Source: Candidatus Magasanikbacteria bacterium CG10_big_fil_rev_8_21_14_0_10_47_10 (GTDB lineage Bacteria; Patescibacteriota; Patescibacteriia; Magasanikbacterales; UBA922). Taken from it: DNA of 64,000 nt. The notes beneath the pieces are model-generated. The model saw only the letters and a program-made list of their open reading frames with translations, was not told where the DNA came from and made no database searches. How positions within the stretch are numbered: position 1 is the stretch's first letter; each line of letters starts with the position of its first letter. Below, piece by piece: positions 6,386 through 64,000 of this stretch. The stretch is from positions 7,591 to 71,590 of the forward strand of contig PFCB01000022.1 of assembly GCA_002773135.1 (NCBI GenBank), in the 5' to 3' direction. The position numbers and the translations under genes were made by a program.

Positions 6386-6862
6386 GTGATCACGATCATT
6401 CTCGCTGTCCTGCTGGCTGTCGCCATGGCGTTCGCCGCCTTCTTGCTCAAGGAGATGTTCAAGAAGTTTGACTTCATGGCCGAGTTCCTGAGGAGCTCGG
6501 CGCTTATGGTGCACTATCGGCACGATGGGGAAGTCCGCGGGATGCAGAACATCGTGCTGAGGGGCAATGAGCCGTTCTGTGTGCTCGTCGGGTTCAAGAT
6601 GGTGCTCCCGGTTCTGGGGAACGTCGGGTTCGACTACTTCGGATTCGTTCGGTCGAACGACGACGGTGTGGCTGTCATCTGCACCTACCTCGGCTCGGGG
6701 TCGTGCGATTTTATCTTCGTCGCCGATTGTGACGTTGACATCAACCCGATCACAGCATCCTCGACGACAGAGGACCAGCAGCTCCAGCCGGATGTACGGT
6801 ACCCGCCGCACCCGCTGCTGCAGGTGCTGCCGGACAAGCTGAAGATGTTGTTCAACAAGTAG
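6386..6862 (+). CDS. GC-rich hypothetical membrane-anchored protein (compositionally foreign)
   Basis: GTG start 5 nt after AAGGAGA. N-terminal TM (VITIILAVLLAVAMAFAAFLL). GC about 58-60% with very high GC3, against about 45% in the flanks. A hairpin follows the stop. The antisense ORF 6275-6967 would clash with rnhA. Confidence 0.5.
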   Translation: MITIILAVLLAVAMAFAAFLLKEMFKKFDFMAEFLRSSALMVHYRHDGEVRGMQNIVLRGNEPFCVLVGFKMVLPVLGNVGFDYFGFVRSNDDGVAVICTYLGSGSCDFIFVADCDVDINPITASSTTEDQQLQPDVRYPPHPLLQVLPDKLKMLFNK

Positions 6863-6881
6863 GAACAGGGAGGAAGGAGAC

Positions 6882-6912
6882 GAAAAAAGCCCTCGAATCA
6901 TCGGGGGCTTTC
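6882..6912. terminator. bidirectional hairpin between convergent genes
   Basis: agccc...gggct stem flanked by an A-run and a T-run. It lies between the GC-rich gene (+) and rnhA (-). Confidence 0.4.
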
Positions 6913-6929
6913 GCAATGTTACACGTTCC

Positions 6930-7331
6930 TTACATGCGCGCATCAAGCGTTTTGTTGACCTCGGCATCGGCCAGCTTATTGTACTCGCGGCGAATATGCT
7001 TTATGGACCAAGGCTTGAATTCCTGAAGCGCATTGTACGCCTGGACAAATAGCTTTTGCAGTGTCGGCTCTTTTACTTTCCATCGTCCGTTCAGCTGCTC
7101 AACAACAAGTTTACTATCCAATCGGCACTCCACACTTGTTGCGCCAAGTGTTTTTGCTCGTTTCAGTCCGGAAATAATTGCTGAATACTCTGCATAATTA
7201 TTTGTCTGATGACCCAAAAAATCGCCATAGGCAGCCAGCGTTTTACCGGCTGTATCATGAATAACAACACCGGATGCAGAGGGACCGGGATTGCCCCGAG
7301 ATCCGCCGTCCGCGTAAATGATACATTTCAT
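6930..7331 (-). CDS. rnhA: ribonuclease HI
   Basis: 133 aa; the RNase H fold signature (IIYADGGSRGNPGPSASG...NNYAEYSAIISGL...) is obvious. Confidence 0.9.
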   Translation of the reverse strand: MKCIIYADGGSRGNPGPSASGVVIHDTAGKTLAAYGDFLGHQTNNYAEYSAIISGLKRAKTLGATSVECRLDSKLVVEQLNGRWKVKEPTLQKLFVQAYNALQEFKPWSIKHIRREYNKLADAEVNKTLDARM

Positions 7332-7334
7332 AGG

Positions 7335-9098
7335 TTACTTCTTTTTAAGATCAACAATTGTCATTTGTAATTCACGGTTGCCATTCCACTCATTGACACC
7401 AATTTCAAAAACTATATCAAGCACGTCTCCCTTCGACAGTTCACGACTCCAGTCTATCTCTCCACTGCACAAGTTCCAGCCGATTGTTTTGCGAATTGTG
7501 GTAGAGGTATGAGTGATCATGATTCGAAGGTGCTTGCCTTCCTTGCCCACAGGTTCGACACCTACAACAGTTACGTTCTGTGCTAAATATTTCGGCTCCT
7601 CATTTGCCTGACCAAATGGTTTAAATCGGCCAAGTAATTCATAGAGCCCCCAATTTACTTGTTCCAAATCAATCTGGGCATCAATTTTTATCGTCGGTGT
7701 CAAATCAATATCTTTTGTCACGTCTAAAAAATAATCGATAAATGCATTTTCAAATTCTTCGCGAATATCTGGCGATGCAAGGGTAAAACCGCATGCCATT
7801 GGATGGCCGCCAAATTTGGAAAAAAAATGCGGCATCTGTTGCAGCGCCTCAATCATATTGAACCCCTCAACACTGCGGCCTGAACCCATAAACTCAGAAT
7901 CGTCCTTCATGGTCATCGCAAAAACAGGTTTTTGGAATTCATTTTTTATCTGGCTTGCAATCAGACCCACAACCCCACTGGCCCAACCGGGTGCATACAC
8001 AAACAATACTGGTTTATCCATTTGTTTCTGACGTACTTGCTGAATTGCCTCAGTCACAAATTCGTCTGTCATGCGTCTTCGCTCATCATTACTTTGGTTG
8101 AGTTGCCATGCCAAATCCACGGCTTCTGTGCCATCTTTTGTCACCAGCAGCTGATACGCTGTATTGGCATGGTCAAGGCGTCCAGCAGCATTAATTCTGG
8201 GCGCAATGCGAAAGCCAATGGTTTGTGCATCAAGTTCGCGCGTGAGTGATCCGTCTTCATTCATTAGGCGTGCCTCCAAAAGAAGCTTTTGCAGGCCGAT
8301 ACGTTTTGTTTTGTTTAAAACAATAAGTCCAAAGGTTGTCAGAGTCCGTGATTCACCGACAAGTGGCACCATGTCCGCAACACTGGCGATGGCTACCATG
8401 TCGAGCAGCCATTTTTCAAATGCTTCATGATTTTCACCACTTTCAAGAAGTTCATTTTTTTCAGCATGGGTTCTGAGCAGTGCTTGCGCAAGTTTAAATG
8501 CAACACCTCCGCCAGCCAAATGTTTGTACGGGTACGTTTCACCTTCGACTTTTGGATGAATAATGGCAAAGGCAGGAGGGAGTCTTTCTGGAATGCTATG
8601 GTGATCAGTAATAATTACGTCTATCCCTTTTTCGTTGGCGTATTCAACCTCTGCTGTATTACTAATACCACAGTCGCACGTGATGATCAGCGATGTTTCT
8701 TGCGCATGTAGCAGATCAATTGTTTTCATGTTCAGACCATAGCCATCAGTTTCTCTGTGCGGCAAAAAAACGTCAACCGCAGTTGCTCCCAATGCGTGCA
8801 GTGTGTCTGTCAAAATAACCGATGCGCTCACACCGTCGGCATCATAATCTCCATGAATGGTTATTTTTTCATTTTTCTTAACCGCATCAATCAACCGCGA
8901 AACAGCCTTCTTCATGTCTTTAAATAAAAAAGGATCATGAACATGGCAGGTATAATCAGGATTCAGAAATTCGTCAATTGCATCCTGCGTGCGGATGTCT
9001 CTGTGATATAACAATGAGGCAACAGTTCGAGGCAGCTCTGGAAATTGCTCAAAAAAGCTATCTGGCGGAGAGGGGAGGACGTCCCAGCGTTTTTGCAT
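7335..9098 (-). CDS. recJ: single-stranded-DNA-specific exonuclease RecJ
   Basis: 587 aa; DHH (ITIHGDYDADGVSAS...DHH) and DHHA1 motifs. Lies immediately upstream of rnhA on the same strand. Confidence 0.9.
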   Translation of the reverse strand: MQKRWDVLPSPPDSFFEQFPELPRTVASLLYHRDIRTQDAIDEFLNPDYTCHVHDPFLFKDMKKAVSRLIDAVKKNEKITIHGDYDADGVSASVILTDTLHALGATAVDVFLPHRETDGYGLNMKTIDLLHAQETSLIITCDCGISNTAEVEYANEKGIDVIITDHHSIPERLPPAFAIIHPKVEGETYPYKHLAGGGVAFKLAQALLRTHAEKNELLESGENHEAFEKWLLDMVAIASVADMVPLVGESRTLTTFGLIVLNKTKRIGLQKLLLEARLMNEDGSLTRELDAQTIGFRIAPRINAAGRLDHANTAYQLLVTKDGTEAVDLAWQLNQSNDERRRMTDEFVTEAIQQVRQKQMDKPVLFVYAPGWASGVVGLIASQIKNEFQKPVFAMTMKDDSEFMGSGRSVEGFNMIEALQQMPHFFSKFGGHPMACGFTLASPDIREEFENAFIDYFLDVTKDIDLTPTIKIDAQIDLEQVNWGLYELLGRFKPFGQANEEPKYLAQNVTVVGVEPVGKEGKHLRIMITHTSTTIRKTIGWNLCSGEIDWSRELSKGDVLDIVFEIGVNEWNGNRELQMTIVDLKKK

Positions 9099-9163
9099 AC
9101 TACGTATATCTTGATAAGACTGACTTAGGGATGCGCAGCCTGGAGTTTTGCCATACAGGTACG

Positions 9164-9268
9164 CTAAAAAGCGCTAAAAAGCGGTAGAATCGTAAAAATA
9201 ATCATTCCGCCAATACCGACAATGGCAATGATGATTTTAAGTGTCTTCTGTGATTTTTTTCCCCACAT
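9164..9268 (-). CDS. possible small hydrophobic peptide (34 aa)
   Basis: Hand translation: MWGKKSQKTLKIIIAIVGIGGMIIFTILPLFSAF. It lies upstream of recJ on the same strand. No clear SD was found, so this is speculative. Confidence 0.2.
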   Translation of the reverse strand: MWGKKSQKTLKIIIAIVGIGGMIIFTILPLFSAF

Positions 9269-9325
9269 ATTACAATGATTAGTCCTACCGATAATACCAC
9301 AAAGATGTAAACGATGCATACCCCA

Positions 9326-9350
9326 TAAAAAAATCCCCAAAAGGGGATTT
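9326..9350 (-). terminator. intrinsic terminator of lepA
   Basis: Read on the minus strand: stem atcccc/ggggat with loop tttt, then a T7 run directly after the lepA stop. Confidence 0.55.
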
Positions 9351-11137
9351 TAGCGCTTTAAGACTGCCATATATGCCTCGGTTGGAATTTCAACCTTTCC
9401 TTTTCCATGCGCAAGCATTTTTTTCTTTCCCTTTTTCTGCTTTTCAAGCAATTTGCGTTTTCGCGTGACATCACCGCCATAGAGCTTTGCGGTCACATCT
9501 TTACGCAGCGCAGACAGACGCTCTGACGCAACAATTTTCCCTCCAATGGCTGCTTGAATTTTAACTACAAATTGCTGCTTTGGCAGTGTCTCCTTTAGGG
9601 AATGTACAATTTGTTTGCCAATACGAAACGCTTCGTCTTCCCAAACAAGAAGTGCGAGAGCTTCTACGGGTTCCTCTGCCACAACAATATCCATTTTCAC
9701 AACATTTGTCTTCCGGTATTCCTTGAGGTCGTAGCTCAAGGATGCATATCCGCTTGTCACTGATTTTAGCTTATCATAAAAATCTGTAATCAATGCCGCC
9801 AGTGGCATATCGTAGTGAAGCATTGCCCGTTTGCCACCACCCACACTCAGGTACTCAGTTGTGGTATATTCTCCTTTGCGTTCAGCAACCAGGCTCATGA
9901 CATTTCCAATATAGTTGTCTGGAGTAATAATATCCACGCGCATCCACGGTTCCTCAATCCGCTCAATTGACTGAACCTCCGGAAGATCCTGAGGACTTTT
10001 TACAATAAGATCTACTCCATTCGTTTTATACACATGGTACGCAACACTTGGCACTGTGGCAATAATATGGAGACCGAATTCGCGTCGCAATCTTTCTTGA
10101 AAAATTTCAAGGTGCAACATACCGAGAAATCCGCATCGGAATCCAAAGCCAAGCGCCTGTGAGTGTTCCGGCTCAAACATGAGCGCAGAGTCATTGAGTT
10201 TCAGCTTATCCATGGCATCGCGCAGCGCATTGTAGTCATCGCCCTCAGCAGGAAACACACCGGCAAAAACCATGGGGCGTACTTCCTTATATCCCGGTAG
10301 CCGATCGGTCGTTTGCGAATCAAGGCGGGTAATCGTGTCGCCCACAGCGACTTCGCCGATTTCTTTGAGACCGGAAACCAGATATCCAATTTGCCCATTC
10401 TCCATCTGCGCATCCGGTGACATTTTTGGCGAATAGTGACCGATATCCAAAATTTCAGCGGTAGCGCCTGTGCTCATAAAGCGTATTTTGTCACCCTTTT
10501 TGAGAAAGCCATCCTTCATGCGAATCGATGCGACCACGCCTTTATAATCATCGTACGATGAGTCAAAAATGAGCGCGCGTGGGGGCAGCGCGGATGTATC
10601 GACCGGCGCGGGTATTTGCGCGATAACAGTATCAAGCAATTGCGGGACTCCTTCTCCTGTTTTGCCGGAGCAGTGAAGTATGTCCTCGCGTTTGCAACCC
10701 AAAAGATGAATGATCTCCTCACTGACTTTTTCGGGATTAGCGTTTGGCAGGTCAATTTTATTCAAAACAGGGATGATGGCAAGGTCCAGATCCAATGCCA
10801 AATAGAGGTTGGCGATAGTTTGCGCCTGAACACCCTGTGACGCGTCTACCAAAAGAATAGCTCCTTCAACTGCGGCTAGAGAGCGTGAAACCTCGTAAGT
10901 AAAGTCGACGTGGCCCGGTGTATCAATAAGATTGAGCGTGCAGCCCTTGTACTGCATCCGCACGGGCTGTAGTTTTATGGTAATACCGCGTTCCTGCTCC
11001 AGCTCCATTTGATCGAGCATTTGGGCCTTCATATTTCGCTTGTCCACGGTTCCGGTTAATTCCAAAAAGCGGTCAGCCAGCGTGGACTTCCCGTGATCAA
11101 TGTGAGCGATAATACAAAAGTTACGAATAGGGGACAT
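9350..11137 (-). CDS. lepA: translation elongation factor 4 (LepA)
   Basis: 595 aa; GTPase G-domain (IIAHIDHGKSTLADR) and a LepA-type C-terminus. Confidence 0.95.
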   Translation of the reverse strand: MSPIRNFCIIAHIDHGKSTLADRFLELTGTVDKRNMKAQMLDQMELEQERGITIKLQPVRMQYKGCTLNLIDTPGHVDFTYEVSRSLAAVEGAILLVDASQGVQAQTIANLYLALDLDLAIIPVLNKIDLPNANPEKVSEEIIHLLGCKREDILHCSGKTGEGVPQLLDTVIAQIPAPVDTSALPPRALIFDSSYDDYKGVVASIRMKDGFLKKGDKIRFMSTGATAEILDIGHYSPKMSPDAQMENGQIGYLVSGLKEIGEVAVGDTITRLDSQTTDRLPGYKEVRPMVFAGVFPAEGDDYNALRDAMDKLKLNDSALMFEPEHSQALGFGFRCGFLGMLHLEIFQERLRREFGLHIIATVPSVAYHVYKTNGVDLIVKSPQDLPEVQSIERIEEPWMRVDIITPDNYIGNVMSLVAERKGEYTTTEYLSVGGGKRAMLHYDMPLAALITDFYDKLKSVTSGYASLSYDLKEYRKTNVVKMDIVVAEEPVEALALLVWEDEAFRIGKQIVHSLKETLPKQQFVVKIQAAIGGKIVASERLSALRKDVTAKLYGGDVTRKRKLLEKQKKGKKKMLAHGKGKVEIPTEAYMAVLKR

Positions 11138-14456: not shown

Positions 14457-15812
14457 ATGAAAGTCACTTTTTTTGGTGCGGCGCATCAGGTTACCGGGTC
14501 GTGTCACCTTATTGAAACAAAGACAAAGCGTATATTATTTGATTGCGGCATGTTTCAGGGAGGTAATTATAATGAGGGCAGAAATGCAGATGCATTTCCG
14601 TTTGACCCGTCTGAGCTTGATGCTGTTTTTGTAAGTCATGCACACGCAGATCACAGCGGACGTGTGCCAAAGCTCATACGCGATGGATACGCTGGCGCGG
14701 TATACATGACGAAAGGCACTCGGGAGCTGGCGAAAATTATTTGGGATGATTCGCTCTCAATCATGCGGTATGACAATGAAAAATTTCAGCGGCCAATTTT
14801 GTTTGATGAACATGATATTGATGAGGCCTATGGCTGCTGTGATGGTGTGGACTATCATCAAAAAATTGACCTGGGTGACGGAGTGACTGCACTATTTAAA
14901 GATGCGGGGCATATATTTGGCTCATCCTTTATAGAGCTTCATGCAGACGGCAAAACCCTAGCATATTCCGGTGATTTGGGCAATAAGAATGCCCCAATCG
15001 TGCGTCCTACTGAAATGCTTGGGGAAATAGACGTACTTCTTATAGAATCAACCTATGGGGACAGACTTCATGAACCAGAGGGGCACAGAAAACAGCTTTT
15101 GCTTGATATTGTAAAAAAGGGGATAGCAAATGGAGGTGTGATTATGATGCCGGCCTTTTCCATAGAACGAACACAGGAAATTTTGTATGATTTGGATCAA
15201 CTCAAAGAGCACGATAAGACACTACCAAATTTACCGATCTACCTGGACAGTCCAATGGCTATTAAAGCGGGCAAAGTATACAAAGAATTTCCAGAGTACT
15301 ATGACGAAGAGGCTGCTCAGCAATATAAAATGGGTGATGATTTTTTACATTTTGACGGTTTGGAAGTAACACCATCTCGAGAAGATTCAAAGCGCATCAA
15401 TCATTCGCCAAATCCAAAGATGATAATCGCGGGAGCTGGCATGATGAACGGTGGGCGGATATTGCACCATGCGAAGCGATATTTACCAGATCCTGCATCG
15501 CTTCTTGTTTTGGTTGGATATCAGGCGCAGGGAACATTGGGTCGCAGATTGTACGAAGGTGCAGAGGAAGTTGAAATACATGGTGATAGAATTCCTGTTC
15601 GTGCAACGGTCACTGCTATTGGCGCGTTGTCAGCGCACGCAGATCAAGATAAGTTGGTTGATTGGGTTCGTTCAGCAAAAAAAACACCGGCAAAGGTGTA
15701 TTGTGTTCATGGCGAGCCGCATGCATCAACTGAGCTTGCTCATCGATTAAAAAAAGAAATTTCAGGTTTAGAAGCATTTGTTCCAGAAGAAGGGGAGACG
15801 GTTGAAATTTGA
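14457..15812 (+). CDS. MBL-fold beta-CASP ribonuclease (RNase J/CPSF-like)
   Basis: HxHxDH motif (SHAHADHSGRVPKL) plus a beta-CASP and RNA-specificity domain architecture, about 450 aa. Start taken at ATG 14457; the 14406 start is TTG. Confidence 0.75.
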   Translation: MKVTFFGAAHQVTGSCHLIETKTKRILFDCGMFQGGNYNEGRNADAFPFDPSELDAVFVSHAHADHSGRVPKLIRDGYAGAVYMTKGTRELAKIIWDDSLSIMRYDNEKFQRPILFDEHDIDEAYGCCDGVDYHQKIDLGDGVTALFKDAGHIFGSSFIELHADGKTLAYSGDLGNKNAPIVRPTEMLGEIDVLLIESTYGDRLHEPEGHRKQLLLDIVKKGIANGGVIMMPAFSIERTQEILYDLDQLKEHDKTLPNLPIYLDSPMAIKAGKVYKEFPEYYDEEAAQQYKMGDDFLHFDGLEVTPSREDSKRINHSPNPKMIIAGAGMMNGGRILHHAKRYLPDPASLLVLVGYQAQGTLGRRLYEGAEEVEIHGDRIPVRATVTAIGALSAHADQDKLVDWVRSAKKTPAKVYCVHGEPHASTELAHRLKKEISGLEAFVPEEGETVEI

Positions 15813-15844
15813 TTGCCTGGGTGAGCAATACAAATCAATCCATA

Positions 15845-16085
15845 GCTGCAGCCGTCGAGGTGTCGTTCCAGATGGTGAGGATACGACCTTCTCGATGCTG
15901 AGGATTGCCGCGCTGACTATTGTGGCACCTCTACCGCCACAAACTGTATTGATCACCCAGGGGTTCTCTCCTACCGCGTCATCGCGTCCTCCGGCCTGCT
16001 TGCCCGCCAGCGCGATGAACCCAACTGTGGTATCAGCGTACCAAGTCAGGCATGCAGGGACATCTGCGCACCCTCGGAAATGCGC
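15845..16085 (-). pseudogene. rhodanese-like gene remnant (no start codon)
   Basis: The minus-strand frame reads ...LEHWIIAHFRGCADVP...ENPWVINTVCGGRGATIVSAAIL..., resembling the rhodanese GHIPGA and active-site Cys-loop motifs. An in-frame TGA precedes it and there is no ATG/GTG/TTG start. It lies in a GC-rich island. Confidence 0.25.
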
Positions 16086-16133
16086 AATTATCCAATGCTC
16101 TAATCATATCAATCAGTTTGAATTGAAGCAAAC

Positions 16134-16160
16134 AAAAAAGCACCAATATGGCGCTTTTTT
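16134..16160. terminator. bidirectional intrinsic terminator
   Basis: aaaaaagcacc-aatat-ggcgctttttt: a GC core stem flanked by an A6 and a T6 run. Confidence 0.55.
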
Positions 16161-16448
16161 GTTCCGTCTATCTGCTAGAAGTAACAAAGAGAGGGGAATT
16201 GGGTGATACCGAAGTACCACCCGTGTGGGATTTACTAGGTTCCCGAACCTCTGTTAGCACGCCGCATCTGCCGTTGCAGATGGCCACAATGCGGCGAGAG
16301 CCGACAGTGGCGACCTATGTCGCCTTCACGCGGGATAAACCCGCGGAGCGTAGATTTCTCCACGCTCGCCAATGGCCAGGCATTGAATGCCGGGCACAAC
16401 TTTGGCGAGATACGTATCTCATCAGAGTTGTGCCTGTCACTTACTGAC
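16135..16448 (-). ncRNA. candidate structured ncRNA (about 310 nt) of unknown family
   Basis: On the minus strand it is bounded by a TTGACA-16-TATAGT promoter and the 16134-16160 terminator. The sequence is GC-rich, has no credible ORF in any frame, and carries at least 7 consecutive short hairpins (e.g. ggcgac-atag-gtcgcc, cgcggg-tttat-cccgcg, catctgc-aacg-gcagatg, cacaact...agttgtg). Confidence 0.35.
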
Positions 16449-16454
16449 CACTCA

Positions 16455-16482
16455 CTATAACAGACAATTATCATTCTGTCAA
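16455..16482 (-). promoter_or_regulatory. sigma70-like promoter driving the candidate ncRNA
   Basis: Minus-strand TTGACA (16482-16477), a 16-nt spacer, then TATAGT (16460-16455). Confidence 0.45.
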
Positions 16483-16639
16483 GTACTGCCAGCCTCTGTG
16501 GTGTGAATAACTAGAATATTGGCTTATTCTATCCAATTTTATCCATGATCATACCACCTTTGCAGATGGAATAGTCACGGGTGAGGTTGGGCAAGCAACC
16601 TCTGACCCTCCAATTGTACCCCTCTTGCCAGGGGCAGAC

Positions 16640-16891
16640 CTACGTGTGGTCGTTAAAGCCGTCGAGCGGGTCCTCGTCACGTCGCAGTGCGATTCGCGCC
16701 ATGTGCTCACAGGCGACGCCCAGTGCTACGCAGAGGAGCACGACTGCGGTAAAGAACCAGTTGACGGCGATGTTCGTCACATAGGCGTACCAGGCGAGGT
16801 ACATCGCGCCACCCAACAGCCCGAAGGCCACCAGGTAGAGCACAGTCGCTGCCGCGATCTGTGAGGGTCGCAGCCCTTTGTGCTTGTCCAT
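16640..16891 (-). CDS. GC-rich small two-TM membrane protein (hypothetical)
   Basis: 83 aa (MDKHKGLRPSQIAAATVLYLVAFGLLGGAMYLAWYAYVTNIAVNWFFTAVVLLCVALGVA...). Strong SD (GGAGA with a 4-nt spacer). Very high GC3. Confidence 0.55.
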   Translation of the reverse strand: MDKHKGLRPSQIAAATVLYLVAFGLLGGAMYLAWYAYVTNIAVNWFFTAVVLLCVALGVACEHMARIALRRDEDPLDGFNDHT

Positions 16892-16931
16892 GTTTTCTCC
16901 TTCTTGATGGACATCCCACCATACTATATCT

Positions 16932-16960
16932 TTGTAAACCTGTCAAGATTATGATACAAT
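16932..16960 (+). promoter_or_regulatory. sigma70-like promoter upstream of the 17002 gene and uvrB
   Basis: TTGTAA, a 17-nt spacer, then TACAAT, in an AT-rich spacer following the GC-rich island. Confidence 0.45.
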
Positions 16961-17001
16961 AATTGCGCTAAAACTAAATAAATATAATCCACAAATTGCA
17001 T

Positions 17002-37582: not shown

Positions 37583-38806
37583 TCATATCTTTAACAACGT
37601 TTTCTCAATGAAACTAAACAGTGTTTTAAACGTTTTTTCTGAATTAAATTGCCTATCAATCGTTTTCAGTCCATTTGCTATAAATAATTGCCGGACGTCT
37701 TTATCATTGAGCAGGCTCAGTAGCCTATTCGATAAATGACTTGCATCATTTGGGATGGTTAAGTACCCATTAACACCATCTTCTATGATTTCCGGCACTC
37801 CTCCAACCTTTGTACCCAACACCGGGAGTCCGCATGCCATTGCCTCAAGATATACTTGTCCGAACGTTTCGTTTTCTGAAGCAAGGACGAAAACATCTGA
37901 ACCGGCGTATACTCGAGGCATTTCTTCAAGTTTGAATGTGCGAACGATGACCTGATCTTCAACCCCATGAATTTGGATAAAGCCCTCAAGTTTTTTTAAC
38001 GCTTCTTGGAATTGGATATGCAGTCGAGCTGGGGGTTTCCCAATAGCAAGTAACAGACGAAGTGACTCATCTTGATGAGCTATTTTTGAAAAAGCATCAA
38101 GCAGGTTGATAAAACCCTTTTCTTGAATAATGTCTTTGTACCCGTGTAAAATTCTTGAAGCACACAAAATTACTTTCTTTTCTTGAGATAATTTAAGTTT
38201 CTTCTTTAACCACTTTTTATTAACAACTTGATTAAACTCTTTTATATTCACTCCAAGATATTTGGTCGTCAAACTTTTGATATTTGACCCCTTTTGAAAT
38301 ACATCACCTGCGACGCTTTTACTCACACAAATAATCTTTTGCCAAAACAGATTATTAATGAGTTCAGTTTGTAGTTCATTTGTAGAGAAAGAGTGTAGTT
38401 GCAAAAACAGTGGCACATCCTTTGCGTGACAGATCATGTTGACGAGCAAACTGTATGATGGAGGCAGTCCAACATGAAAATTTTGCGCAATCACCGCATC
38501 AATTTCTTTTTGTTCAATGAACGTGTTCAAAAATGAAAAGAACTCATGAGATTTACTTTTTACAGTCTTTTTTGATGCTAACCCGATGTCCAATCCTTTC
38601 CCCGGTCTTGGGGCCATGTCAAGCGATTCCCTATAATAAATCGTGACATTTTTTTGCTTGATGATGGCATCCTTTGTTTTGCTCGGGAGGATAAAATAAT
38701 AACGACCTTCTTGCCTCTCACAATACTCGATAAGATTTTTGATGTATCGTTCTACGCCGCCAATGCTCAATTGAGGTGAATTTGGACTGATAATGAGAAA
38801 ATTCAT
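37583..38806 (-). CDS. family 4 glycosyltransferase
   Basis: GT4 C-terminal motif (EAMACGLPVLGTKVGGVPE). ATG at 38806; the longer ORF from 38866 starts with GTG. Confidence 0.75.
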   Translation of the reverse strand: MNFLIISPNSPQLSIGGVERYIKNLIEYCERQEGRYYFILPSKTKDAIIKQKNVTIYYRESLDMAPRPGKGLDIGLASKKTVKSKSHEFFSFLNTFIEQKEIDAVIAQNFHVGLPPSYSLLVNMICHAKDVPLFLQLHSFSTNELQTELINNLFWQKIICVSKSVAGDVFQKGSNIKSLTTKYLGVNIKEFNQVVNKKWLKKKLKLSQEKKVILCASRILHGYKDIIQEKGFINLLDAFSKIAHQDESLRLLLAIGKPPARLHIQFQEALKKLEGFIQIHGVEDQVIVRTFKLEEMPRVYAGSDVFVLASENETFGQVYLEAMACGLPVLGTKVGGVPEIIEDGVNGYLTIPNDASHLSNRLLSLLNDKDVRQLFIANGLKTIDRQFNSEKTFKTLFSFIEKTLLKI

Positions 38807-38892
38807 GCAAACGTTTTTGTTTATTTTAATATGTTCTGTATCAATACCATCTGTATCAATAACCACTCACTGTTGCCGTTTTCAAATCGTTG

Positions 38893-38964
38893 CTCGGAGA
38901 CTAGGATTCGAACCTAGATACCCAGGACCAGAACCTGGAGTCCTACCATTAGACGATCTCCGAA
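38893..38964 (-). tRNA. tRNA-Gln (anticodon CUG)
   Basis: Hand-folded cloverleaf: acceptor TCGGAGA/TCTCCGA, D-stem GTCT/GGAC, anticodon stem CCAGG/CCTGG with loop TTCTGGT, T-arm CTAGG-TTCGAAT-CCTAG, discriminator G. No CCA is encoded. Confidence 0.8.
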
Positions 38965-48224: not shown

Positions 48225-48261
48225 CTGACTCTTGTTGGTCTGATGAGGTACCAAAATAAAA

Positions 48262-48285
48262 AAACACACAGATGTGTGAATTGCC
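48262..48285 (-). terminator. terminator downstream of the GC-rich wHTH gene (minus strand)
   Basis: Minus-strand cacaca-tc-tgtgtg followed by a T7 run. Confidence 0.4.
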
Positions 48286-48296
48286 CGCCGAAGCTG

Positions 48297-48620
48297 TTAC
48301 GCTCCGGCGGACGAGGGGTGGGGGATTGGCGGGATGGTGGACACTTGGGATGCCAAATGGTCCGGTGGCTCAGGGAGCATGCTGTTCAGGCATTGCCTCA
48401 CCTCGCGACGGATGGCAACCCATCCGTTGATCACCACGATCAGCCGGGCTCTCTGTAAGCAGTCGATCACATAGATCAACCGCTTCTTCCCCAGATGTTT
48501 TGGGGCATCCGCCATCATACTGTCGAATGCCTGGTTGCCCTCCTTGTGCAGGCTGTAGAGAACCTGCAGGTGAACTCTGTGAAGAAGCGCCGCCCGCGTC
48601 CAAAATTCCTGCTCCGTCAT
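48297..48620 (-). CDS. GC-rich small putative winged-helix DNA-binding protein
   Basis: About 107 aa from MTEQEFW. An HTH-like core (LHRVHLQVLYSLHKEGNQAFDSMMADAPKHLGKKRLIYVIDCLQRARLIVVINGW). High GC and GC3. Lies antisense to the flanking + genes. Confidence 0.45.
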   Translation of the reverse strand: MTEQEFWTRAALLHRVHLQVLYSLHKEGNQAFDSMMADAPKHLGKKRLIYVIDCLQRARLIVVINGWVAIRREVRQCLNSMLPEPPDHLASQVSTIPPIPHPSSAGA

Positions 48621-48689
48621 TGATACCTCCTGTTGTCGAATAAAAACTATATACCGATTTAGACGATTTGTCAATTATACGAGATCCCT

Positions 48690-56767: not shown

Positions 56768-56829
56768 ACGCAAAACTGTGTATGATATAGATATCACTTA
56801 ACAACGCGTACTATAATCTATCATATCTA

Positions 56830-56916
56830 TGGACTGCGAACATTGTGGCGCACCAATGGACGACGGCCCTTGCATGGATTGCACCGGCTGCAACGACTGC
56901 TGCACCTGCAAGTAGA
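56830..56916 (+). CDS. putative 28-aa cysteine-rich peptide
   Basis: MDCEHCGAPMDDGPCMDCTGCNDCCTCK (9 Cys in 28 aa). GC3-rich codons. TATAAT at 56812-56817 and a terminator hairpin directly downstream. No obvious SD. Confidence 0.35.
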
Positions 56917-56920
56917 TGAA

Positions 56921-56948
56921 AAACACGAGACGATCCTCGTGTTTTTTG
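56921..56948 (+). terminator. terminator/attenuator hairpin between the Cys-rich peptide ORF and the ABC exporter
   Basis: cacgag-acgatc-ctcgtg with a flanking A4 run and a T6 run. Confidence 0.5.
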
Positions 56949-56979: not shown

Positions 56980-58737
56980 ATGAAGCGTCACACAAAGCGA
57001 ACTCTTCAAATATACTGGGAAAGCCTGAAGGGCAAACGCGTCCTTTCTTTTTTTGTTATTCTTGGTATCGTGGCGTCATCGATATTCAATCTCGCGCCGC
57101 CATTGCTCTACAAGGAATTTTTTAACACATTGCTGGCACCCAGGGACGCGCAGACCACGCATGCTCTTGTTCAAATTATCGGATTTGTCTTTATCGTGCA
57201 CTTCATTGGATGGTTTTTTTGGCGGTTGACATCGTTTATCAAGGCACGCATTCAGATTCGCGTGCTTGGCAGACTCTTTGATCGGGTATTTAACTCTATT
57301 CACCATCACTCTGTCGGTTTTTTTAATAATACATTTGTCGGGTCACTCGTAAAGCGCGTGAATAGATTTGTATTCGCGTTCAACGAACTCACGGACACTT
57401 TCTTGTATGACTTGCTGGGAACCGGTGTTGAAATAGTGATCATAACCACTGTCCTCTTTTTTCAAAGTCCGGTATTGGGATGGATTATCCTGGGATGGTC
57501 TGTCGTCTTTATTTTCTTTAACTATTTATTTACAGTTTACAAACTTAAATTTGACATTGAGCAGTCTGCCTTGGATTCTCGGACAACCGGGCACATCGCT
57601 GATACGGTTACCAATCAAATTAATCTGAAGTTTTTCGCCTCTCTCCAATCAGAGGCAACCCTTTTTAAAAAAATACATGGTGAGCAGCTTGCAAAACGGC
57701 TTTTTCGGTGGAATCTGGAGTATACCTATGAGGCATTCCAGACATTGCTGATGATCATGCTTGAGTTTGCCATGTTTTATTACGCGATCCGGCTATGGCA
57801 GGAAGGACAAATACAGGTCGGGGACTTTGTCCTTATACAGGCGTACCTGATAACATTATTTAACCGCCTTTGGGGATTTGCGCGCGTGATCCGGAGAATC
57901 TATGAGCAGCTCGCAGACGCGGAAGAGATGACGGAAATATTGGAAACACCGCGCGAGATAAAAGATCTCAAGCGGGCCAAGGATCTTATGGTAAAAAAAG
58001 GCGCGGTGGTCTTTCGGAATGTGAATTTTTTTTACAACAAAACCCGTCCCGTACTGAAAAATTTTTCTCTTTCTCTTAAACCGGGTGAACGAGTCGCACT
58101 GGTCGGTCCGTCCGGCGCCGGGAAAAGTACTATTATCAAGCTACTCTTGCGTTTTAGTGACATTGCTCAGGGCAGCATTATCATTGACAAGCAGGATATT
58201 CGCAAGGTAACACAAGACAGTCTCCATCGCGCCATGAGTGTTGTTCCGCAGGATCCCATTCTTTTTCACCGGTCGCTTATGGACAATATTCGGTATGGGA
58301 AGCCAGGTGCGACTGATGATGAGGTGATTGAGGCGTCAAAAGCGGCGCATTGCCACGAGTTCATTGATGAATTGCCGGAACAATATGGCACCTATGTGGG
58401 TGAGCGCGGAGTAAAGCTGTCAGGAGGTGAGCGTCAACGTGTGGCTATTGCGCGCGCAATATTAAAGAACGCGCCAATTTTGGTGCTTGATGAAGCAACG
58501 TCCAGTCTGGACTCTGAGTCAGAGTTTTACATTCAGGAAGCACTGGATGTACTTATGAAAGAAAAAACAGTCATTGTGATTGCGCATCGACTATCAACCA
58601 TTATGCGCATGGACCGAATCATCCTCCTGGAAAATGGGATGATCGCGGAGCAGGGCACGCACACACAACTCCTGTCTCAACACAAAGGACGATACAGACG
58701 ATTATGGGAGCTTCAGGCCGGCGGCTTTATTACCTAG
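56980..58737 (+). CDS. ABC transporter, fused permease/ATP-binding protein (MsbA/exporter type)
   Basis: Six-TM domain followed by an NBD with Walker A GPSGAGKST, signature [14 protein letters not shown] and Walker B LVLDEATSSLD. Confidence 0.9.
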   Translation: MKRHTKRTLQIYWESLKGKRVLSFFVILGIVASSIFNLAPPLLYKEFFNTLLAPRDAQTTHALVQIIGFVFIVHFIGWFFWRLTSFIKARIQIRVLGRLFDRVFNSIHHHSVGFFNNTFVGSLVKRVNRFVFAFNELTDTFLYDLLGTGVEIVIITTVLFFQSPVLGWIILGWSVVFIFFNYLFTVYKLKFDIEQSALDSRTTGHIADTVTNQINLKFFASLQSEATLFKKIHGEQLAKRLFRWNLEYTYEAFQTLLMIMLEFAMFYYAIRLWQEGQIQVGDFVLIQAYLITLFNRLWGFARVIRRIYEQLADAEEMTEILETPREIKDLKRAKDLMVKKGAVVFRNVNFFYNKTRPVLKNFSLSLKPGERVALVGPSGAGKSTIIKLLLRFSDIAQGSIIIDKQDIRKVTQDSLHRAMSVVPQDPILFHRSLMDNIRYGKPGATDDEVIEASKAAHCHEFIDELPEQYGTYVGERGVKLSGGERQRVAIARAILKNAPILVLDEATSSLDSESEFYIQEALDVLMKEKTVIVIAHRLSTIMRMDRIILLENGMIAEQGTHTQLLSQHKGRYRRLWELQAGGFIT

Positions 58738-58743
58738 CCATCG

Positions 58744-59313: not shown

Positions 59314-59791
59314 AATTTTTTACGGGCTGATTATCGCAATAGTCGTTTCGGTAATAGGGTTGGGACTATACTACGCAGGATCTCCGGCCCAAGCGCGCCG
59401 CGAAGCTATTGACCGCGCAAAGGTCAGCGATCTGCAACAAATTACCTGGGCTGCACAGGATTTTGCCTTCAATAGACATACGCTTCCTGAATCACTCGAT
59501 CAGCTCCAGATGACGTCGTCAGGATACAACCTGCGCATTGCGGATCCTGAGACGGCAGAGCGATATACGTATGAAATGAATCCGGATGCTCAGTTGTACG
59601 ATCAGCAAGGATTTCGCTTGTGTGCGACTTTTCTTACAGACAGTGAAGACACGACACCCGAGCTGCGACTTGTCCCAAAGGCAGCTGTGAACGAGGACTG
59701 GACACACCCGGCAGGCTCGTATTGTTTTGACCGATATGCTGACGTTACCGCATCGCCGAATGAACCTATTCGCGTCCCAAAATTTGAGTAG
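59300..59791 (+). CDS. hypothetical protein with N-terminal TM anchor
   Basis: MSRIKIFYGLIIAIVVSVIGLGLYY... followed by a soluble domain. Overlaps the previous gene by about 14 nt. Alternative starts at 59285 and 59252. Confidence 0.4.
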   Translation: MSRIKIFYGLIIAIVVSVIGLGLYYAGSPAQARREAIDRAKVSDLQQITWAAQDFAFNRHTLPESLDQLQMTSSGYNLRIADPETAERYTYEMNPDAQLYDQQGFRLCATFLTDSEDTTPELRLVPKAAVNEDWTHPAGSYCFDRYADVTASPNEPIRVPKFE

Positions 59792-59794
59792 CCT

Positions 59795-60346
59795 ATGTAT
59801 ATTCCAATCATATTAGGTACGGGAAGAAGCGATCGCCAGTCCGAAAAGGTGGCGCACTATGTGCACGTGCGCGCCGAATCGTTCGGGCAATTTGACACGG
59901 AGCTGATTGATGTGAGGGAATATGCCGCTCAATTTACCATACCTCCATGGGAGGAAAACGCCGCGACAAAGCCCTGGCGTGACATTGCGGCCAAGGCGGA
60001 CGGTTTTATAATCGTCGCGCCGGAGTATAATCATGGTTACCCGGGCGAGCTAAAGTTGCTGCTTGATCAGGCATATGAAGAATATTTTGATAAGCCTGTG
60101 GCGCTTTGCGGTGTTTCAAGCGGTCAGTTTTCCGGGGTGCGACTTAATTTTGCCCTGCAGGATGTCTGGTTTACCATGAAAATGGTTCCTGCAGGCGCGA
60201 CTTTTTTTGGAAATGTAAAAGAGCTGTTTGATGAGCACGAAAATATTCTGGATGAAACGTATAATACGAGAATTGATGACATGCTCAAACGCCTGCTGGC
60301 GTACGCCAAAGCATTGAAGAATGTCAGAGATGATTTGTCGAAGTAG
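59795..60346 (+). CDS. NADPH-dependent FMN reductase (flavodoxin-like fold)
   Basis: IILGTGRSDRQSEKVA... and APEYNHGYPGELK motifs typical of the NAD(P)H-dependent FMN reductase family. Confidence 0.8.
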   Translation: MYIPIILGTGRSDRQSEKVAHYVHVRAESFGQFDTELIDVREYAAQFTIPPWEENAATKPWRDIAAKADGFIIVAPEYNHGYPGELKLLLDQAYEEYFDKPVALCGVSSGQFSGVRLNFALQDVWFTMKMVPAGATFFGNVKELFDEHENILDETYNTRIDDMLKRLLAYAKALKNVRDDLSK

Positions 60347-60361
60347 AATATTTTCGTGCAA

Positions 60362-60385
60362 CGACCGCCTTCGGGCGGTTTTTCA
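60362..60385 (+). terminator. intrinsic terminator
   Basis: accgcc-ttcg-ggcggt with a UUCG-type loop, followed by a T-run. Confidence 0.55.
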
Positions 60386-60435
60386 TTTTGTCAGCGCTTG
60401 TCCCGACCTCGGCACTCTGATAAAATGATTGCACT

Positions 60436-63378
60436 ATGGCCGAGCGATCACTCAATGAGAACCAAAGAAAAGCCGTGGAGCACACAGGCGGGCCCCTTTT
60501 GATTGTAGCCGGCGCAGGCACCGGCAAAACCACTGTTATTTCCCAAAAAATAGCGCATTTGATCAGCGAGCAGGGCGTAGGGCCGGAACACATACTGGCC
60601 ATGACCTTTACCGACAAGGCGGCTGGGGAGATGGACAAGCGGGTGTCGTCTCTCGTTGACATCGGCTACGCAGATCTGCATATCTCCACATTTCACGCGT
60701 TCTGCCAGCGGCTCCTGGAGCAGTACGCGCTTGATATTGGCCTGCCGAATCGATTCCGCGTGCTGACACAAACCGATGCCTGGCTCCTTGTTCGGGATCA
60801 TATATACGAATTTGACCTAGACTACTACAGACCCTTGGGCAATCCAGGCGCGCACATTCATGAACTTATTCGTCACTTTTCCAAATGCAAGGACGAGCTA
60901 ATTACACCCGACGCGTATCTGGCATACGCGGAGTCGGTCAAACTAGACAACGATGACGTGCACACAGACGAAAAAAACCGTTTGACTGAAGTCGCAAACG
61001 CGTACCACATTTACAACCAACTTTTATTGAAAAAAAGCGCACTTGATTTTGGTGATCTTATATTTCATGCGGTGCGCTTACTCAGGGAGCGGCCCGCACT
61101 CCTCGCCGATCTCAAAAAGAAATATACGCATATTTTGGTTGATGAATTTCAAGACGTGAATTGGTCGCAGTATGAGTTGGTTCGGATGCTCACCAATAAA
61201 GACTCGGCGCTAACAGTCGTGGGGGATGATGATCAGAGCATTTACGCGTTTCGTGGCGCGTCTGTTTCAAATATTCTGCGCTTTAAGGAGGATTTCCCGA
61301 GCGCCAAGGAGGTTGTGCTGAATATAAATTACCGTTCAGGCCAAGAAATACTTGATGCCGCGTACACGCTTGTACAGCACAATAATCCGGACCGACTTGA
61401 GGTAAAATTGCGGCTGCCCAAGGCGCTCACTTCCGCGACAGAATCAACATCCACGGTAGCGCATCGTCACTATCCAACACTGGAGGAAGAAATTGCCGGC
61501 GTTGTCACAAAACTATGCGAGACCAAAAAGCAGAGCAGCAGTGCGGTGTGGGATGATTTTGCTATCCTGGTGCGGGCAAACAGCTACGCTGATCCATGCA
61601 TGCGAGCGCTTGAGGGTGCCGGTGTTCCCTATGAATTTTTGTCTTCCAGTGGTCTGTACCGTCAGCCCATTGTGATGGATTGTATTAACTTTTTTAAGGC
61701 GATTGAAAATCATTTTGACGCCACAGCACTGTACAGACTGATGACCATGCCCGCCCTCAATATGGATGCAGCTGATGTACATGCTATTGTGCAGAGTGCA
61801 AAAAAAAAGGCGTCTTCCTATTTTTCTATTCTCGAACACCCCCAGCACTATGCATTGAGCCAGGATGGCACGGCCAAGGCATTACTCCTGCACTCCTGTA
61901 TCATTCATGGACGTGAAGCAGCACTAAAGCGCAACCCGACAACTGTCTTATACCAATTTTTAGATGGGAGTGGTTATCTTTCGTACCTCGCGCGTGAAGA
62001 GAATCAAGGGAATCACGCAGTCTTGCGAAGTATTTATCACTTGAAACAATTTTTTGACTCAATTCAGGCCTTTGAAACGGCCCAGCCCGGTGCCACGGTG
62101 CATAGTCTCATCGAGCACCTCCTCTATAGCATGGAGGCGGGAGACGAAGGGAAACTGTACCAGCCGGACGATACACCGGACTCAGTGAACATACTCACTA
62201 TTCACGGCGCAAAAGGTCTTGAGTTTGACCATGTTTTTGTCGTCAATATGGTAGAAGATCGTTTCCCGTCTCGACGACGGTCTGATGCGATTGAGCTACC
62301 GCTTGCCCTTGTGAACGAGCAGTTGCCGGAGGGGGACTATCACTATCAGGAGGAACGGCGCCTCTGCTATGTGGCAATGACACGCGCGCGAAAAAATTTA
62401 TTTCTAACAAGCGCGGATGATTATGGCGGTGTCCGAAAGAAAAAAGTCAGTCGGTTTGTAGTGGAAAGTGGACTGCAGGCAACGAACCTTGGACAACAAC
62501 CCAAAAAGTCGGAGTCCCTTGCGGTTACCCGCGATCAGATGCCGACAGATAGAGGCTCATCAGGTGTCGACCACCTTTACCCTCTACCGAAAATGTTCTC
62601 GTTTTCACAAATACGAAGTTATGACACATGCCCATACCAGTACAAACTCGCGCATGTGCTCAAGATTCCTTTTCGCGGCTCCGCGAGCTTTAGCTTTGGC
62701 AATAGCATACACAACACCCTGCAACACTTTTATGAGCGAGTGCGGCAGCTCAACGAGGCCAAGCAATCTTCTCTGTTTGAGGCGACAACAACGCCGTCAC
62801 AGACGGATGAGATCCTGGTACCGGAGCTCAAAGAACTTTTAACGCTCTACGATGAAGCATGGATAGGAGACTGGTACGAGAGCAAGCGTCAAAAGGAGGA
62901 TTACTATAAAAAGGGAAAAGATATTCTTAAAATATTTTATTCGACAAATGAAAGTCACTGGACAATTCCCATTGCAATTGAAGGCAGCTTTAAAATTAAA
63001 GTGGGGCCGTATACTGTTACCGGAAAGATGGATCGCGTCGACGCGACCGGTGACGGGCTGCACATCATTGACTACAAAACAGGCAAGGGCAAAGAAAAAG
63101 TTGCCGGTGATGACAAAGATCAGCTCCTGATGTATCAAATAGCGGCACAGACACTGCCGCAGTACGCACATCATGGAACTGTTTCAAAGCTGACCTTTTA
63201 CTATATAAATGATAATATACAAACATCCTTTATTGGCAAGAGCAAGGAACTTGAAAAAATGCAAGAAAAAATGAAAAAAGTACTTGATCGAATACATACC
63301 CGAGAATTTGCACCGACACCATCCCAGTTCGTCTGCGCGCGCTGCGATTTTCGAGATATTTGTGAATTCAGAAAATAA
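60436..63378 (+). CDS. UvrD/PcrA-like superfamily I helicase fused to a C-terminal Cas4/AddB-like PD-(D/E)XK nuclease with a 4-Cys cluster
   Basis: Walker A AGAGTGKTTV and UvrD helicase motifs. The C-terminus has YDTCPYQYKL...DYKTGK...CARCDFRDICEF (one Cys, then three Cys). Confidence 0.85.
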   Translation: MAERSLNENQRKAVEHTGGPLLIVAGAGTGKTTVISQKIAHLISEQGVGPEHILAMTFTDKAAGEMDKRVSSLVDIGYADLHISTFHAFCQRLLEQYALDIGLPNRFRVLTQTDAWLLVRDHIYEFDLDYYRPLGNPGAHIHELIRHFSKCKDELITPDAYLAYAESVKLDNDDVHTDEKNRLTEVANAYHIYNQLLLKKSALDFGDLIFHAVRLLRERPALLADLKKKYTHILVDEFQDVNWSQYELVRMLTNKDSALTVVGDDDQSIYAFRGASVSNILRFKEDFPSAKEVVLNINYRSGQEILDAAYTLVQHNNPDRLEVKLRLPKALTSATESTSTVAHRHYPTLEEEIAGVVTKLCETKKQSSSAVWDDFAILVRANSYADPCMRALEGAGVPYEFLSSSGLYRQPIVMDCINFFKAIENHFDATALYRLMTMPALNMDAADVHAIVQSAKKKASSYFSILEHPQHYALSQDGTAKALLLHSCIIHGREAALKRNPTTVLYQFLDGSGYLSYLAREENQGNHAVLRSIYHLKQFFDSIQAFETAQPGATVHSLIEHLLYSMEAGDEGKLYQPDDTPDSVNILTIHGAKGLEFDHVFVVNMVEDRFPSRRRSDAIELPLALVNEQLPEGDYHYQEERRLCYVAMTRARKNLFLTSADDYGGVRKKKVSRFVVESGLQATNLGQQPKKSESLAVTRDQMPTDRGSSGVDHLYPLPKMFSFSQIRSYDTCPYQYKLAHVLKIPFRGSASFSFGNSIHNTLQHFYERVRQLNEAKQSSLFEATTTPSQTDEILVPELKELLTLYDEAWIGDWYESKRQKEDYYKKGKDILKIFYSTNESHWTIPIAIEGSFKIKVGPYTVTGKMDRVDATGDGLHIIDYKTGKGKEKVAGDDKDQLLMYQIAAQTLPQYAHHGTVSKLTFYYINDNIQTSFIGKSKELEKMQEKMKKVLDRIHTREFAPTPSQFVCARCDFRDICEFRK

Positions 63379-63464
63379 AAAAACCCCGACGATTCAGGAT
63401 CTTTTCAATGCTCCCGAGGGTCTCCAGGCCTCGGGGTAGGTGGTGGGACGCGATCAGAGATCGC

Positions 63465-64000
63465 CTAGCACGGAAGTGCGGCCCGTTCATAGCTATACGG
63501 CCAAGGAATGTCCAGCCGATCAAAGATATCGTGCCAGTTCCCGGCGACCATGATACCGTCCGGCACCGCGGGCGTGTCCGCGTCACAGGCGTCGTCTTCG
63601 AGAATGAAGGGACGGCGGCCGTACATGACGCGCTTGAGCTGCAGCATGCCAATGCCGGTCAGATCCGGCAGGCGTGCCGACACAAGCGCGCTCAGCCCCT
63701 GCTGCCGCACCACAGTGTCGGTCACCGCCGTCCCGCTGAAGCAGACCACATTCCGCGCCGACAGCTTGCAGTCGGCTAGCAGATGCAGCTCACCCAGCGT
63801 CGCCCCCAGGTCAAGAGCGACCCGCATGGCGTTGCCGCGGTTCATGGCGTTCATCTGCTCGATGGGCGCGAGGAGACGGACGTTATCCGGCCCCAACCGC
63901 TCCACCAGTCGGCGCAGTGGCATGTGGCACCGTCCGCTGCGGACCGCGTCCCTGTACGGATGCGACCCTCTGCCGTCCGTCGCAAGAAGCAGCCCGGGCA
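63465..64000 (-). CDS. GC-rich hypothetical protein, N-terminus beyond the window
   Basis: The minus-strand frame stays open to the window edge (...PGLLLATDGRGSHPYRDAVRSGRCHMPLRRLVERLG...GNWHDIFDRLDIPWPYS*). GC is about 65%. There is a vague resemblance to metallophosphoesterases. Partial gene. Confidence 0.35.
   Translation of the reverse strand, partial: PGLLLATDGRGSHPYRDAVRSGRCHMPLRRLVERLGPDNVRLLAPIEQMNAMNRGNAMRVALDLGATLGELHLLADCKLSARNVVCFSGTAVTDTVVRQQGLSALVSARLPDLTGIGMLQLKRVMYGRRPFILEDDACDADTPAVPDGIMVAGNWHDIFDRLDIPWPYSYERAALPC

Follow-up and report, generated by a model that had tools for sequence, protein, structure and literature searches.

Short genes with G/C-ending codons in a Magasanikbacteria genome: candidate single-gene cassettes and their possible origin

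The 64,000-nucleotide stretch of DNA analyzed here, hereafter the window, comes from Candidatus Magasanikbacteria bacterium CG10_big_fil_rev_8_21_14_0_10_47_10, which belongs to the Patescibacteria (the Candidate Phyla Radiation, or CPR), and corresponds to positions 7,591 to 71,590 of contig PFCB01000022.1 (assembly GCA_002773135.1). Among its housekeeping genes lie five short coding islands, designated I1, I3, I4, I5 and I6, in which codons ending in G or C are favored far beyond the usage of the resident genes (nominally so for I5). An earlier note, made from the letters of the DNA alone, had described at least six such small genes and explained them most simply by piecemeal acquisition out of a single donor lineage of high GC, such as a host or a closely associated partner organism. 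The sixth element, I2 (15845-16085), proved to be non-coding, and so the description of the set stands for I1, I3, I4 and I6 and, nominally, for I5.

Codon style and make-up of the islands

The genome is mid-GC, with a GC content of 47.3% in the window, and its housekeeping genes cannot be called low-GC, as they had been. Over the 57 native open reading frames (ORFs) of the window, the G+C content of third codon positions (GC3) is 0.469 +/- 0.052 with a maximum of 0.562, and DnaK and the ATP synthase subunits, presumed to be highly expressed, show ordinary values (0.46-0.56). Measured against these native ORFs, I1 (6386-6862, plus strand) has a GC3 of 0.84 (z 7.2, binomial p 6e-22), I6 (63465-64000, minus strand) a GC3 of 0.80 (z 6.5), I3 (16640-16891, minus strand) a GC3 of 0.80 (z 6.3) and I4 (48297-48620, minus strand) a GC3 of 0.75 (z 5.4). 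I5 (56829-56915, plus strand) also reaches 0.75, which at 28 codons makes it an outlier only nominally (p 3e-3). In a principal component analysis of relative codon usage, I1, I3, I4 and I6 fall at 3.2-5.3 on the first axis and native genes at -2.1 to 1.5; both measures place these four islands outside the spread of the genome, which bears out the atypical codon style first ascribed to them. All codon families are shifted, the G-ending and the C-ending codons alike: the share of TTC is 74% in the islands vs. 18% in native genes, that of ATC 84% vs. 23%, that of AAG 88% vs. 38% and that of AAC 90% vs. 35%. The order GC3 > GC1 > GC2 (third, first and second codon positions), typical of genuine coding sequence, is confined to the frames proposed for the islands, and a frame-aware scan of the window revealed no additional intergenic GC3 outliers, its other matches being short frames nested in native genes.

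The remaining codon positions and the amino-acid composition set the islands apart from one another. On the one hand, I1 is native-like in composition (Lys 4.4%, Arg 3.8%, Phe 8.9%), with GC1 and GC2 of 0.58 and 0.32. On the other hand, I6 has amino acids of the type found in high-GC proteomes (Arg 10.1%, Lys 1.6%), with GC1 and GC2 of 0.70 and 0.45. The islands therefore do not share one common history.

The islands are intergenic, as first described, and three of the five (I3, I4 and I6) are oriented opposite to both neighbors. Near-consensus promoters precede I1 (TTGACA-N17-TATTGT, 6317-6345, plus strand), I3 (TTGACA-N17-TATGGT, 16918-16946, minus strand) and I4 (TTGACA-N17-TATAGT, 48646-48674, minus strand); the -35 box of the I1 promoter lies in the loop of the dnaJ terminator hairpin, an inverted repeat at 6299-6315/6327-6343. 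Only six intergenic promoters with a perfect TTGACA occur in the 64 kb of the window, and four of them precede I1, I3, I4 and the candidate RNA gene described below (16195-16447, minus strand). Shine-Dalgarno sites at the right distance from the start are present at I1 (AAGGAG), I3 (AAGGAG), I4 (AGGAGG) and I6, whose site and upstream region lie outside the window. A 3′ hairpin follows each of the five coding islands: I1 shares a hairpin at 6883-6912, a bidirectional terminator, with the convergent RNase H gene, the T-run being on the RNase H side; two hairpins without a T-run stand 3′ of I3 (16583-16634, minus strand); and I4 is followed (48260-48312, minus strand) by a GC-rich stem at 48283-48312 that overlaps the stop codon and then by an ACACACA/TGTGTGT hairpin with a T-run. 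The assertion that every element carries private signals thus holds for the hairpins of all five coding islands and for the promoters of I1, I3 and I4, and fails for I5 in that it has no Shine-Dalgarno site. Folding of the coding islands relative to shuffled controls is modest (z -2.1 to -3.4).

The island junctions recur in independent assemblies from other samples, and the islands are therefore not chimeras. Flanking repeats or att-like sites shared by the islands, for which a check had been suggested, were looked for around the islands of the window and not found, nor was any integrase or transposase near them, their neighbors being housekeeping genes. In a search for empty sites and strain variants, all contigs carrying the flanking proteins came from one clonal population.

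I1 encodes 158 amino acids from a GTG start (the NCBI annotation, COU35_02750, begins at an upstream start). Its structural model is confident (mean predicted local distance difference test, pLDDT, 79.4 with a five-sequence alignment) and consists of a long N-terminal transmembrane helix followed by a seven-strand beta domain. This domain superposes on carbohydrate-binding modules (CBMs) of Ruminococcus flavefaciens and on CBM6/32/35 modules, as well as on the C-terminal domain of the C. perfringens enterotoxin and on collagen-binding domains. Judging from this model, I1 is likely a membrane-anchored beta-sandwich surface protein resembling lectins or CBMs. Five sequences of the family share 42 invariant columns, and the family is under purifying selection. 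The window copy lacks the conserved C-terminus of the family, YPPHWYQRLGFYG; at 6803-6862, an unrelated tail of 17 residues stands in place of YPPH-WYQRLGFYG, and no remnant of the motif is found in the other frames.

I3, I4 and I6 are orphans. I3 (PIR74353.1, 83 amino acids) is predicted to be a small protein with two transmembrane helices; it forms a singleton cluster and has no relative in IMG/VR, having been searched less deeply than I6. I4 (PIR74378.1, 107 amino acids) has none in a word-indexed search, less deep than the searches made for I6, and none in IMG/VR. I6 (COU35_03015) is 189 amino acids long in full and extends about 34 nt beyond the end of the window. For I6, a word-indexed search across 5.8 billion proteins yielded no relative, and neither did an exhaustive HMMER scan that covered 1.84 billion cluster representatives, tblastn against plasmid and phage records, or IMG/VR. 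The single other HMMER match, a 1503-residue repeat protein that shares a short DVPWPYSH-like motif, was rejected as spurious. Comparison of the island proteins with Pfam, NCBIfam, PHROGs and the anti-phage defence models of PADLOC returned nothing save chance-level membrane matches for I3, and a PDB sequence search with I4 and I6 gave nothing meaningful. The AlphaFold2 model of I6, made without an alignment, is unusable (pLDDT 35).

I5 is a mini-unit (56812-56948, plus strand) with a -10 box (TATAAT, 56812-56817), an ORF of 28 codons (56829-56915, corrected from 56830-56916) that encodes MDCEHCGAPMDDGPCMDCTGCNDCCTCK, eight residues of which are Cys, and a terminator stem with a T-run (56923-56942). 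Its start is leaderless-like, since the -10 box ends 11 nt upstream of the ATG and no Shine-Dalgarno site is present; the terminator stem begins 7 nt past the stop codon, and the ATG of an ABC-transporter (exporter) gene follows at 56980. The sequence of I5 is identical in six samples. I5 may act as a leader peptide that senses Cys, or it may be a small exported peptide rich in Cys. A leader-peptide attenuator would be expected to combine a short ORF enriched in the codons of one amino acid, a terminator directly behind it and upstream of a regulated gene, and an alternative antiterminator fold; in the fold of the I5 region, no alternative antiterminator pairing is evident.

Two GC-rich non-coding elements lie between 15813 and 16482. 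The first, which includes I2, spans 15813-16130, directly after an RNase J-like (beta-CASP) gene, and could be read on either strand. Within 15845-16085, GC content is 0.57-0.62 at all three positions in the six frames, with no codon periodicity and no convincing ORF; a long helix is closed by an inverted repeat of 17 nt (15816-15832/15945-15961), and the predicted fold is much more stable than those of shuffled controls (z -4.5 for the plus strand, -5.3 for the minus strand). The second is a candidate structured RNA of about 250 nt, transcribed from 16447 down to 16195 on the minus strand, with its own promoter (TTGACA-N17-TATAGT, 16482-16454) and with its end at a bidirectional terminator (an A-run, a hairpin and a T-run at 16131-16163) that separates the two elements. 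The stretch 16195-16460 folds into a closed multi-hairpin junction with z scores of -7.6 (minus) and -8.6 (plus) against shuffles. Neither element matches an Rfam family, tRNA-Gln being the only match at the gathering score in the window; a permissive Rfam search of 15700-17000 gave chance-level matches only, and no second copy of either element was found in the window or in the loci compared with it. The stretch 16195-16447 is a candidate for a novel structured RNA, and the first element could belong to a 3′ untranslated region (3′UTR) or be another RNA that converges on the terminator between the two; both look like structured RNA, which would account for their GC-richness. A hammerhead was considered for 16195-16447 and rejected, as the CUGAUGAG motif is present without the GAAA core and there is no Rfam match. 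The tRNA, tmRNA and RNase P were likewise rejected as sources of the GC-rich stretches.

Elsewhere in the window, the sole recognized RNA gene is tRNA-Gln (38892-38963, minus strand), and DnaK and DnaJ correspond to PIR74342.1 and PIR74344.1 (locus tags of the COU35_ series). A GT4 glycosyltransferase gene (37583-38963, minus strand) is an AT-rich outlier, with a GC3 of 0.36 and a local GC content down to 31%, and adjoins this only tRNA gene. It bears the usual signature of an acquired gene, with a polarity opposite to that of the GC3-rich islands.

The I1 family in other Patescibacteria

Relatives of I1 were recovered as four protein clusters, six loci of species-representative genomes and seven metagenome loci, several of which recover the same populations (loci are given L numbers below). 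All their contigs are of low to mid GC (33-56%) and of Patescibacteria type; no relative was found in a high-GC genomic context, and none in IMG/VR. The record labels include Candidatus Magasanikiibacteriota, Candidatus Uhrbacteria and "Patescibacteria group"; two records are titled "uncultured Gammaproteobacteria," a label that is unverified. A neighbor of the I1 copy falls in a 90%-identity cluster with RecQ of Magasanikbacteria in L018 and with GatB of Parcubacteria in L010. The relatives of I1 thus belong to the same lineage as the housekeeping genes, an outcome that the earlier note itself regarded as speaking against its proposal.

GC3 is high (0.66-0.84) in 11 of the 15 members of the family, vs. 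backgrounds that range from 0.20 to 0.61. The gap between homologue and background is seen in L018 (0.76-0.77 vs. about 0.24), L007 (0.75-0.80 vs. 0.23-0.33), L008 (0.75 vs. 0.20, the latter from a single neighbor), L016 (0.71 vs. about 0.30), L012 (0.80 vs. about 0.35), L015 (0.77 vs. about 0.40), L011 (0.80-0.84 vs. about 0.45) and L013, the GC-richest genome (0.83 vs. 0.61). In a simple distance tree of the 15 members, the GC3-rich state occupies all deep branches, and one derived clade (L002, L003, L010 and L017) has a resident-like GC3 of 0.26-0.41, so that the family as a whole ranges from 0.26 to 0.84. At four-fold degenerate sites, L008 and L015 are unusually conserved (0.81 identity at 78% amino-acid identity); other pairs are ordinary. 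An overlapping antisense gene was dismissed as the cause of the high GC3, as the long antisense ORFs vary in frame and strand among homologues and are by-products.

The genomic positions of the family are not conserved. Over 19 loci, no window gene besides I1 has a counterpart beside an I1 homologue, and the homologues are not syntenic with the window nor, as far as checked, with each other. L007 and L012 share 80% nucleotide identity over a RibD_C housekeeping block, and the I1-family cassette stands elsewhere in each of them, with 69% identity. Homology between L008 and L015 spans the Shine-Dalgarno site, the coding sequence and the 3′UTR, that between L008 and L009 runs from promoter to terminator, and 3′ hairpins are kept between I1 homologues. 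These homologues sit among housekeeping genes (for RecR, DnaG and prephenate dehydratase, for example), and their surroundings contain no integrase or transposase gene.

The lone match of another window protein near an I1 homologue is an ABC transporter in L011 and L019, which is not the neighbor of I1 in the window. This gene (L011 5504-7315 and L019 4127-5938, both minus strand) is convergent to the I1 homologue and is 51% identical to the window gene at 56980-58737; its GC3 is 0.69 vs. about 0.45 in L011 and L019, and 0.50, a native value, in the window, where I5 precedes it.

Other isolated GC3-rich genes were encountered at the loci of I1 relatives, namely a lipoprotein gene with a TTGACA-N17-TAAAAT promoter (L012:9217-9723) and a gene at L021:1320-1940. 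As GC3-rich islands occur at the loci of many relatives, the recurring pattern belongs to the bacterial group and not to this genome alone. In L013, a metagenome-assembled genome of Uhrbacteria, three GC3-rich genes stand side by side (1957-5444; 0.83-0.90 vs. 0.61), the last being the I1 homologue and the other two encoding YARHG-domain proteins with apparent signal peptides; this island is larger and may preserve more of the source. In L014 (4587-5321), the I1 homologue is apparently damaged, in that an internal segment separating ISTY from PPHWYQ is missing and the N-terminus is aberrantly extended, and its GC3 is still 0.67 vs. 0.46. Two related genomes of Magasanikbacteria type also carry a multi-copy intergenic repeat of about 65-90 nt, in which a terminator hairpin, AATCGCTTAACCAAGCGGTTATTTTTT, is joined to a promoter-like tail and which separates many genes (L007 347-410 and 1164-1230; L012 1-93, 857-932, 2155-2193 and 3913-3988). 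In L007 alone, the I1-family cassette is flanked on both sides by this repeat, there 65 nt long.

Possible origins of the GC3-rich islands

A foreign or mobile origin of the islands, as first proposed, remains reasonable for genes that are short, orphan, monocistronic and compositionally alien; what does not hold is the single high-GC donor. We favor, at a probability of roughly 0.45, the reading that the islands are accessory single-gene cassettes drawn from a GC-richer pool circulating within the Patescibacteria. I1, I3, I4, I5 and I6 would be self-contained single-gene transcription units wedged between housekeeping genes, each with its own promoter (the upstream region of I6 being outside the window), a short ORF of G/C-ending codons and a 3′ hairpin, and they would have been acquired piecemeal, from more than one source rather than from a single high-GC host. 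As to the route, we infer that DNA uptake may be followed by illegitimate or homology-facilitated insertion into intergenic DNA; the near-consensus sigma-70 promoter of a cassette would allow immediate expression, and its composition would then decay slowly towards that of the resident genome. The low-GC3 clade of the I1 family would represent older residents that have already been ameliorated. The predicted surface protein I1, the predicted membrane protein I3 and the lipoprotein and YARHG-domain genes elsewhere suggest that part of the set is cell-envelope equipment, which an episymbiont may exchange and turn over quickly. This reading agrees with a survey of aquifer Patescibacteria in which 83.2% of the detected transfers into Patescibacteria came from other Patescibacteria (PMC12455944).

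Several observations weigh against a circulating GC-rich pool. Within the window, neither an empty site nor a target duplication or a mobility gene came to light. The GC-rich source itself was not found, every I1 homologue being an island in a lower-GC context, even in L013. The GC3-rich members of the family have first and second positions like those of low-GC genomes (GC1 0.48-0.59, GC2 0.30-0.40) and their protein sequences differ by as much as about 50%, which would require a pool of great age and diversity that has escaped sampling. Polarized synonymous changes show an excess of G/C to A/T of about the size that parsimony bias with a saturated GC-rich outgroup gives on its own, and they do not demonstrate ongoing decay. 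Finally, foreign and orphan genes are generally AT-richer than the host genome, and the polarity is reversed here.

An unobserved pool with members so far diverged leaves room for maintenance in place, an unlikely alternative. Here, the islands would be long-term residents whose synonymous sites are kept G/C-rich either by selection on the mRNA (for stability, structure, resistance to AU-directed RNases or expression level) or by GC-biased gene conversion at frequently recombining loci. The persistence of high GC3 in the I1 family on all deep branches whatever the background, its absence from high-GC genomes, the native-like GC1 and GC2 of its members and the conserved four-fold sites of L008 and L015 are in favor of such a force, as is the fact that the limits of the GC shift are largely those of the transcribed units, which have near-consensus promoters. 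However, the ordinary GC3 of DnaK and the ATP synthase subunits makes selection for expression level alone unlikely; the shift of every codon family looks compositional rather than translational; one clade has lost the bias altogether; the advantage of the coding islands over shuffles in folding is modest; and pairs other than L008 and L015 show ordinary synonymous divergence. Moreover, cassettes that are non-syntenic even between related genomes require transfer anyway, and weak selection on about 150 synonymous sites would, on general grounds, be hard to sustain in small symbiont populations.

A bolder proposal, to be regarded as slightly more doubtful still, is that the islands belong to a class of promoter-to-terminator mini-cassettes carried by Magasanikbacteria and related Patescibacteria, many of them encoding surface proteins, with a GC3 held at about 0.7-0.85 even where that of the genome is only 0.2. 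The cause would be a gene-specific force acting in place (mRNA selection, or GC-biased conversion where recombination is very frequent) or residence in a hidden GC-rich mobile reservoir dedicated to these bacteria. In its boldest form, the codon style would be suited to a GC-rich host where the genes are to function.

That one high-GC lineage, a host or close partner, supplied all islands piecemeal is improbable, even though G/C-ending codons are common to the coding islands, the amino acids of I6, and less markedly those of I4, are of high-GC-proteome type and, for the orphans, a donor not yet sequenced could be imagined. The relatives of I1 are all on Patescibacteria-type contigs; I6 has none in the exhaustive scan, plasmids, phages or IMG/VR, I4 has none in a word-indexed search and I3 is a singleton; GC1, GC2 and amino-acid make-up differ among the islands; no flanking repeat or att-like site is shared; and I2, counted among the six, is no gene. 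Least probable by far is an artefact of assembly chimeras or of chance frames in GC-rich non-coding DNA, in spite of the orphan status of I3, I4 and I6, the lack of a confident model for I6 and the long chance ORFs that GC-rich DNA bears on both strands, given that the same junctions appear in independent assemblies of several samples, that the codon-position order of genes occurs only in the proposed frames, that well-spaced Shine-Dalgarno sites, promoters and terminators bracket the ORFs, and that the I1 family is conserved, under purifying selection and confidently folded. The single-host-donor and artefact ideas are thus the least supported.

Known systems and significance

Among the closest known systems are horizontally acquired genes or genomic islets recognized by atypical codon usage, in the framework of amelioration: the islands are short orphans of atypical GC3 with sharp boundaries between housekeeping genes, and the I1 family is patchy and non-syntenic, with one clade resident-like in composition. 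Unlike such islets, the islands are GC-richer than the genome, the analysis found them without a donor, a mobility gene, a tRNA site or a target duplication, and the GC3-rich state of I1 persists over deep divergence with no GC-rich source seen. Phage morons, too, are single-gene units with a private promoter and terminator that are often opposite to their neighbors, dispensable-looking and compositionally distinct; the islands differ from them in having no prophage context and no match in PHROGs, phage genomes or IMG/VR. Integron cassettes are likewise small, mostly orphan, single-ORF units, and some I1 homologues (L007/L012 and L008/L018) have a conserved imperfect palindrome 3′ of the ORF. 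However, the islands are scattered, carry their own promoters and have no integrase, and these 3′ palindromes are terminator-like and not common to the islands of the window. For the product of I1, the likeness is to the beta-sandwich domains of CBMs, on which its predicted seven-strand domain superposes. The exchange among Patescibacteria described in the aquifer survey resembles the present case in habitat type, phylum, mostly within-phylum transfer and membrane or surface functions; in the part considered here, the survey mentions neither single-gene cassettes rich in GC3 nor a family whose GC3 remains high from one genome to another, and its method requires the donor to be present in the dataset (PMC12455944).

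The polarity of the set is unusual, in that a whole group of orphan genes is much GC-richer than the genome that carries it, and the GC-rich state of the I1 family recurs in at least 11 Patescibacteria genomes with no GC-rich source in sight. If a hidden mobile reservoir is the explanation, it would point to an unsampled vehicle of gene exchange in the CPR; if the state is maintained in place, nature would here offer a clean case in which to test selection or biased conversion at synonymous sites. Either way, the cassettes mark a fast-moving, probably surface-exposed part of the streamlined genomes of these episymbionts and are natural candidates for host-interaction genes.

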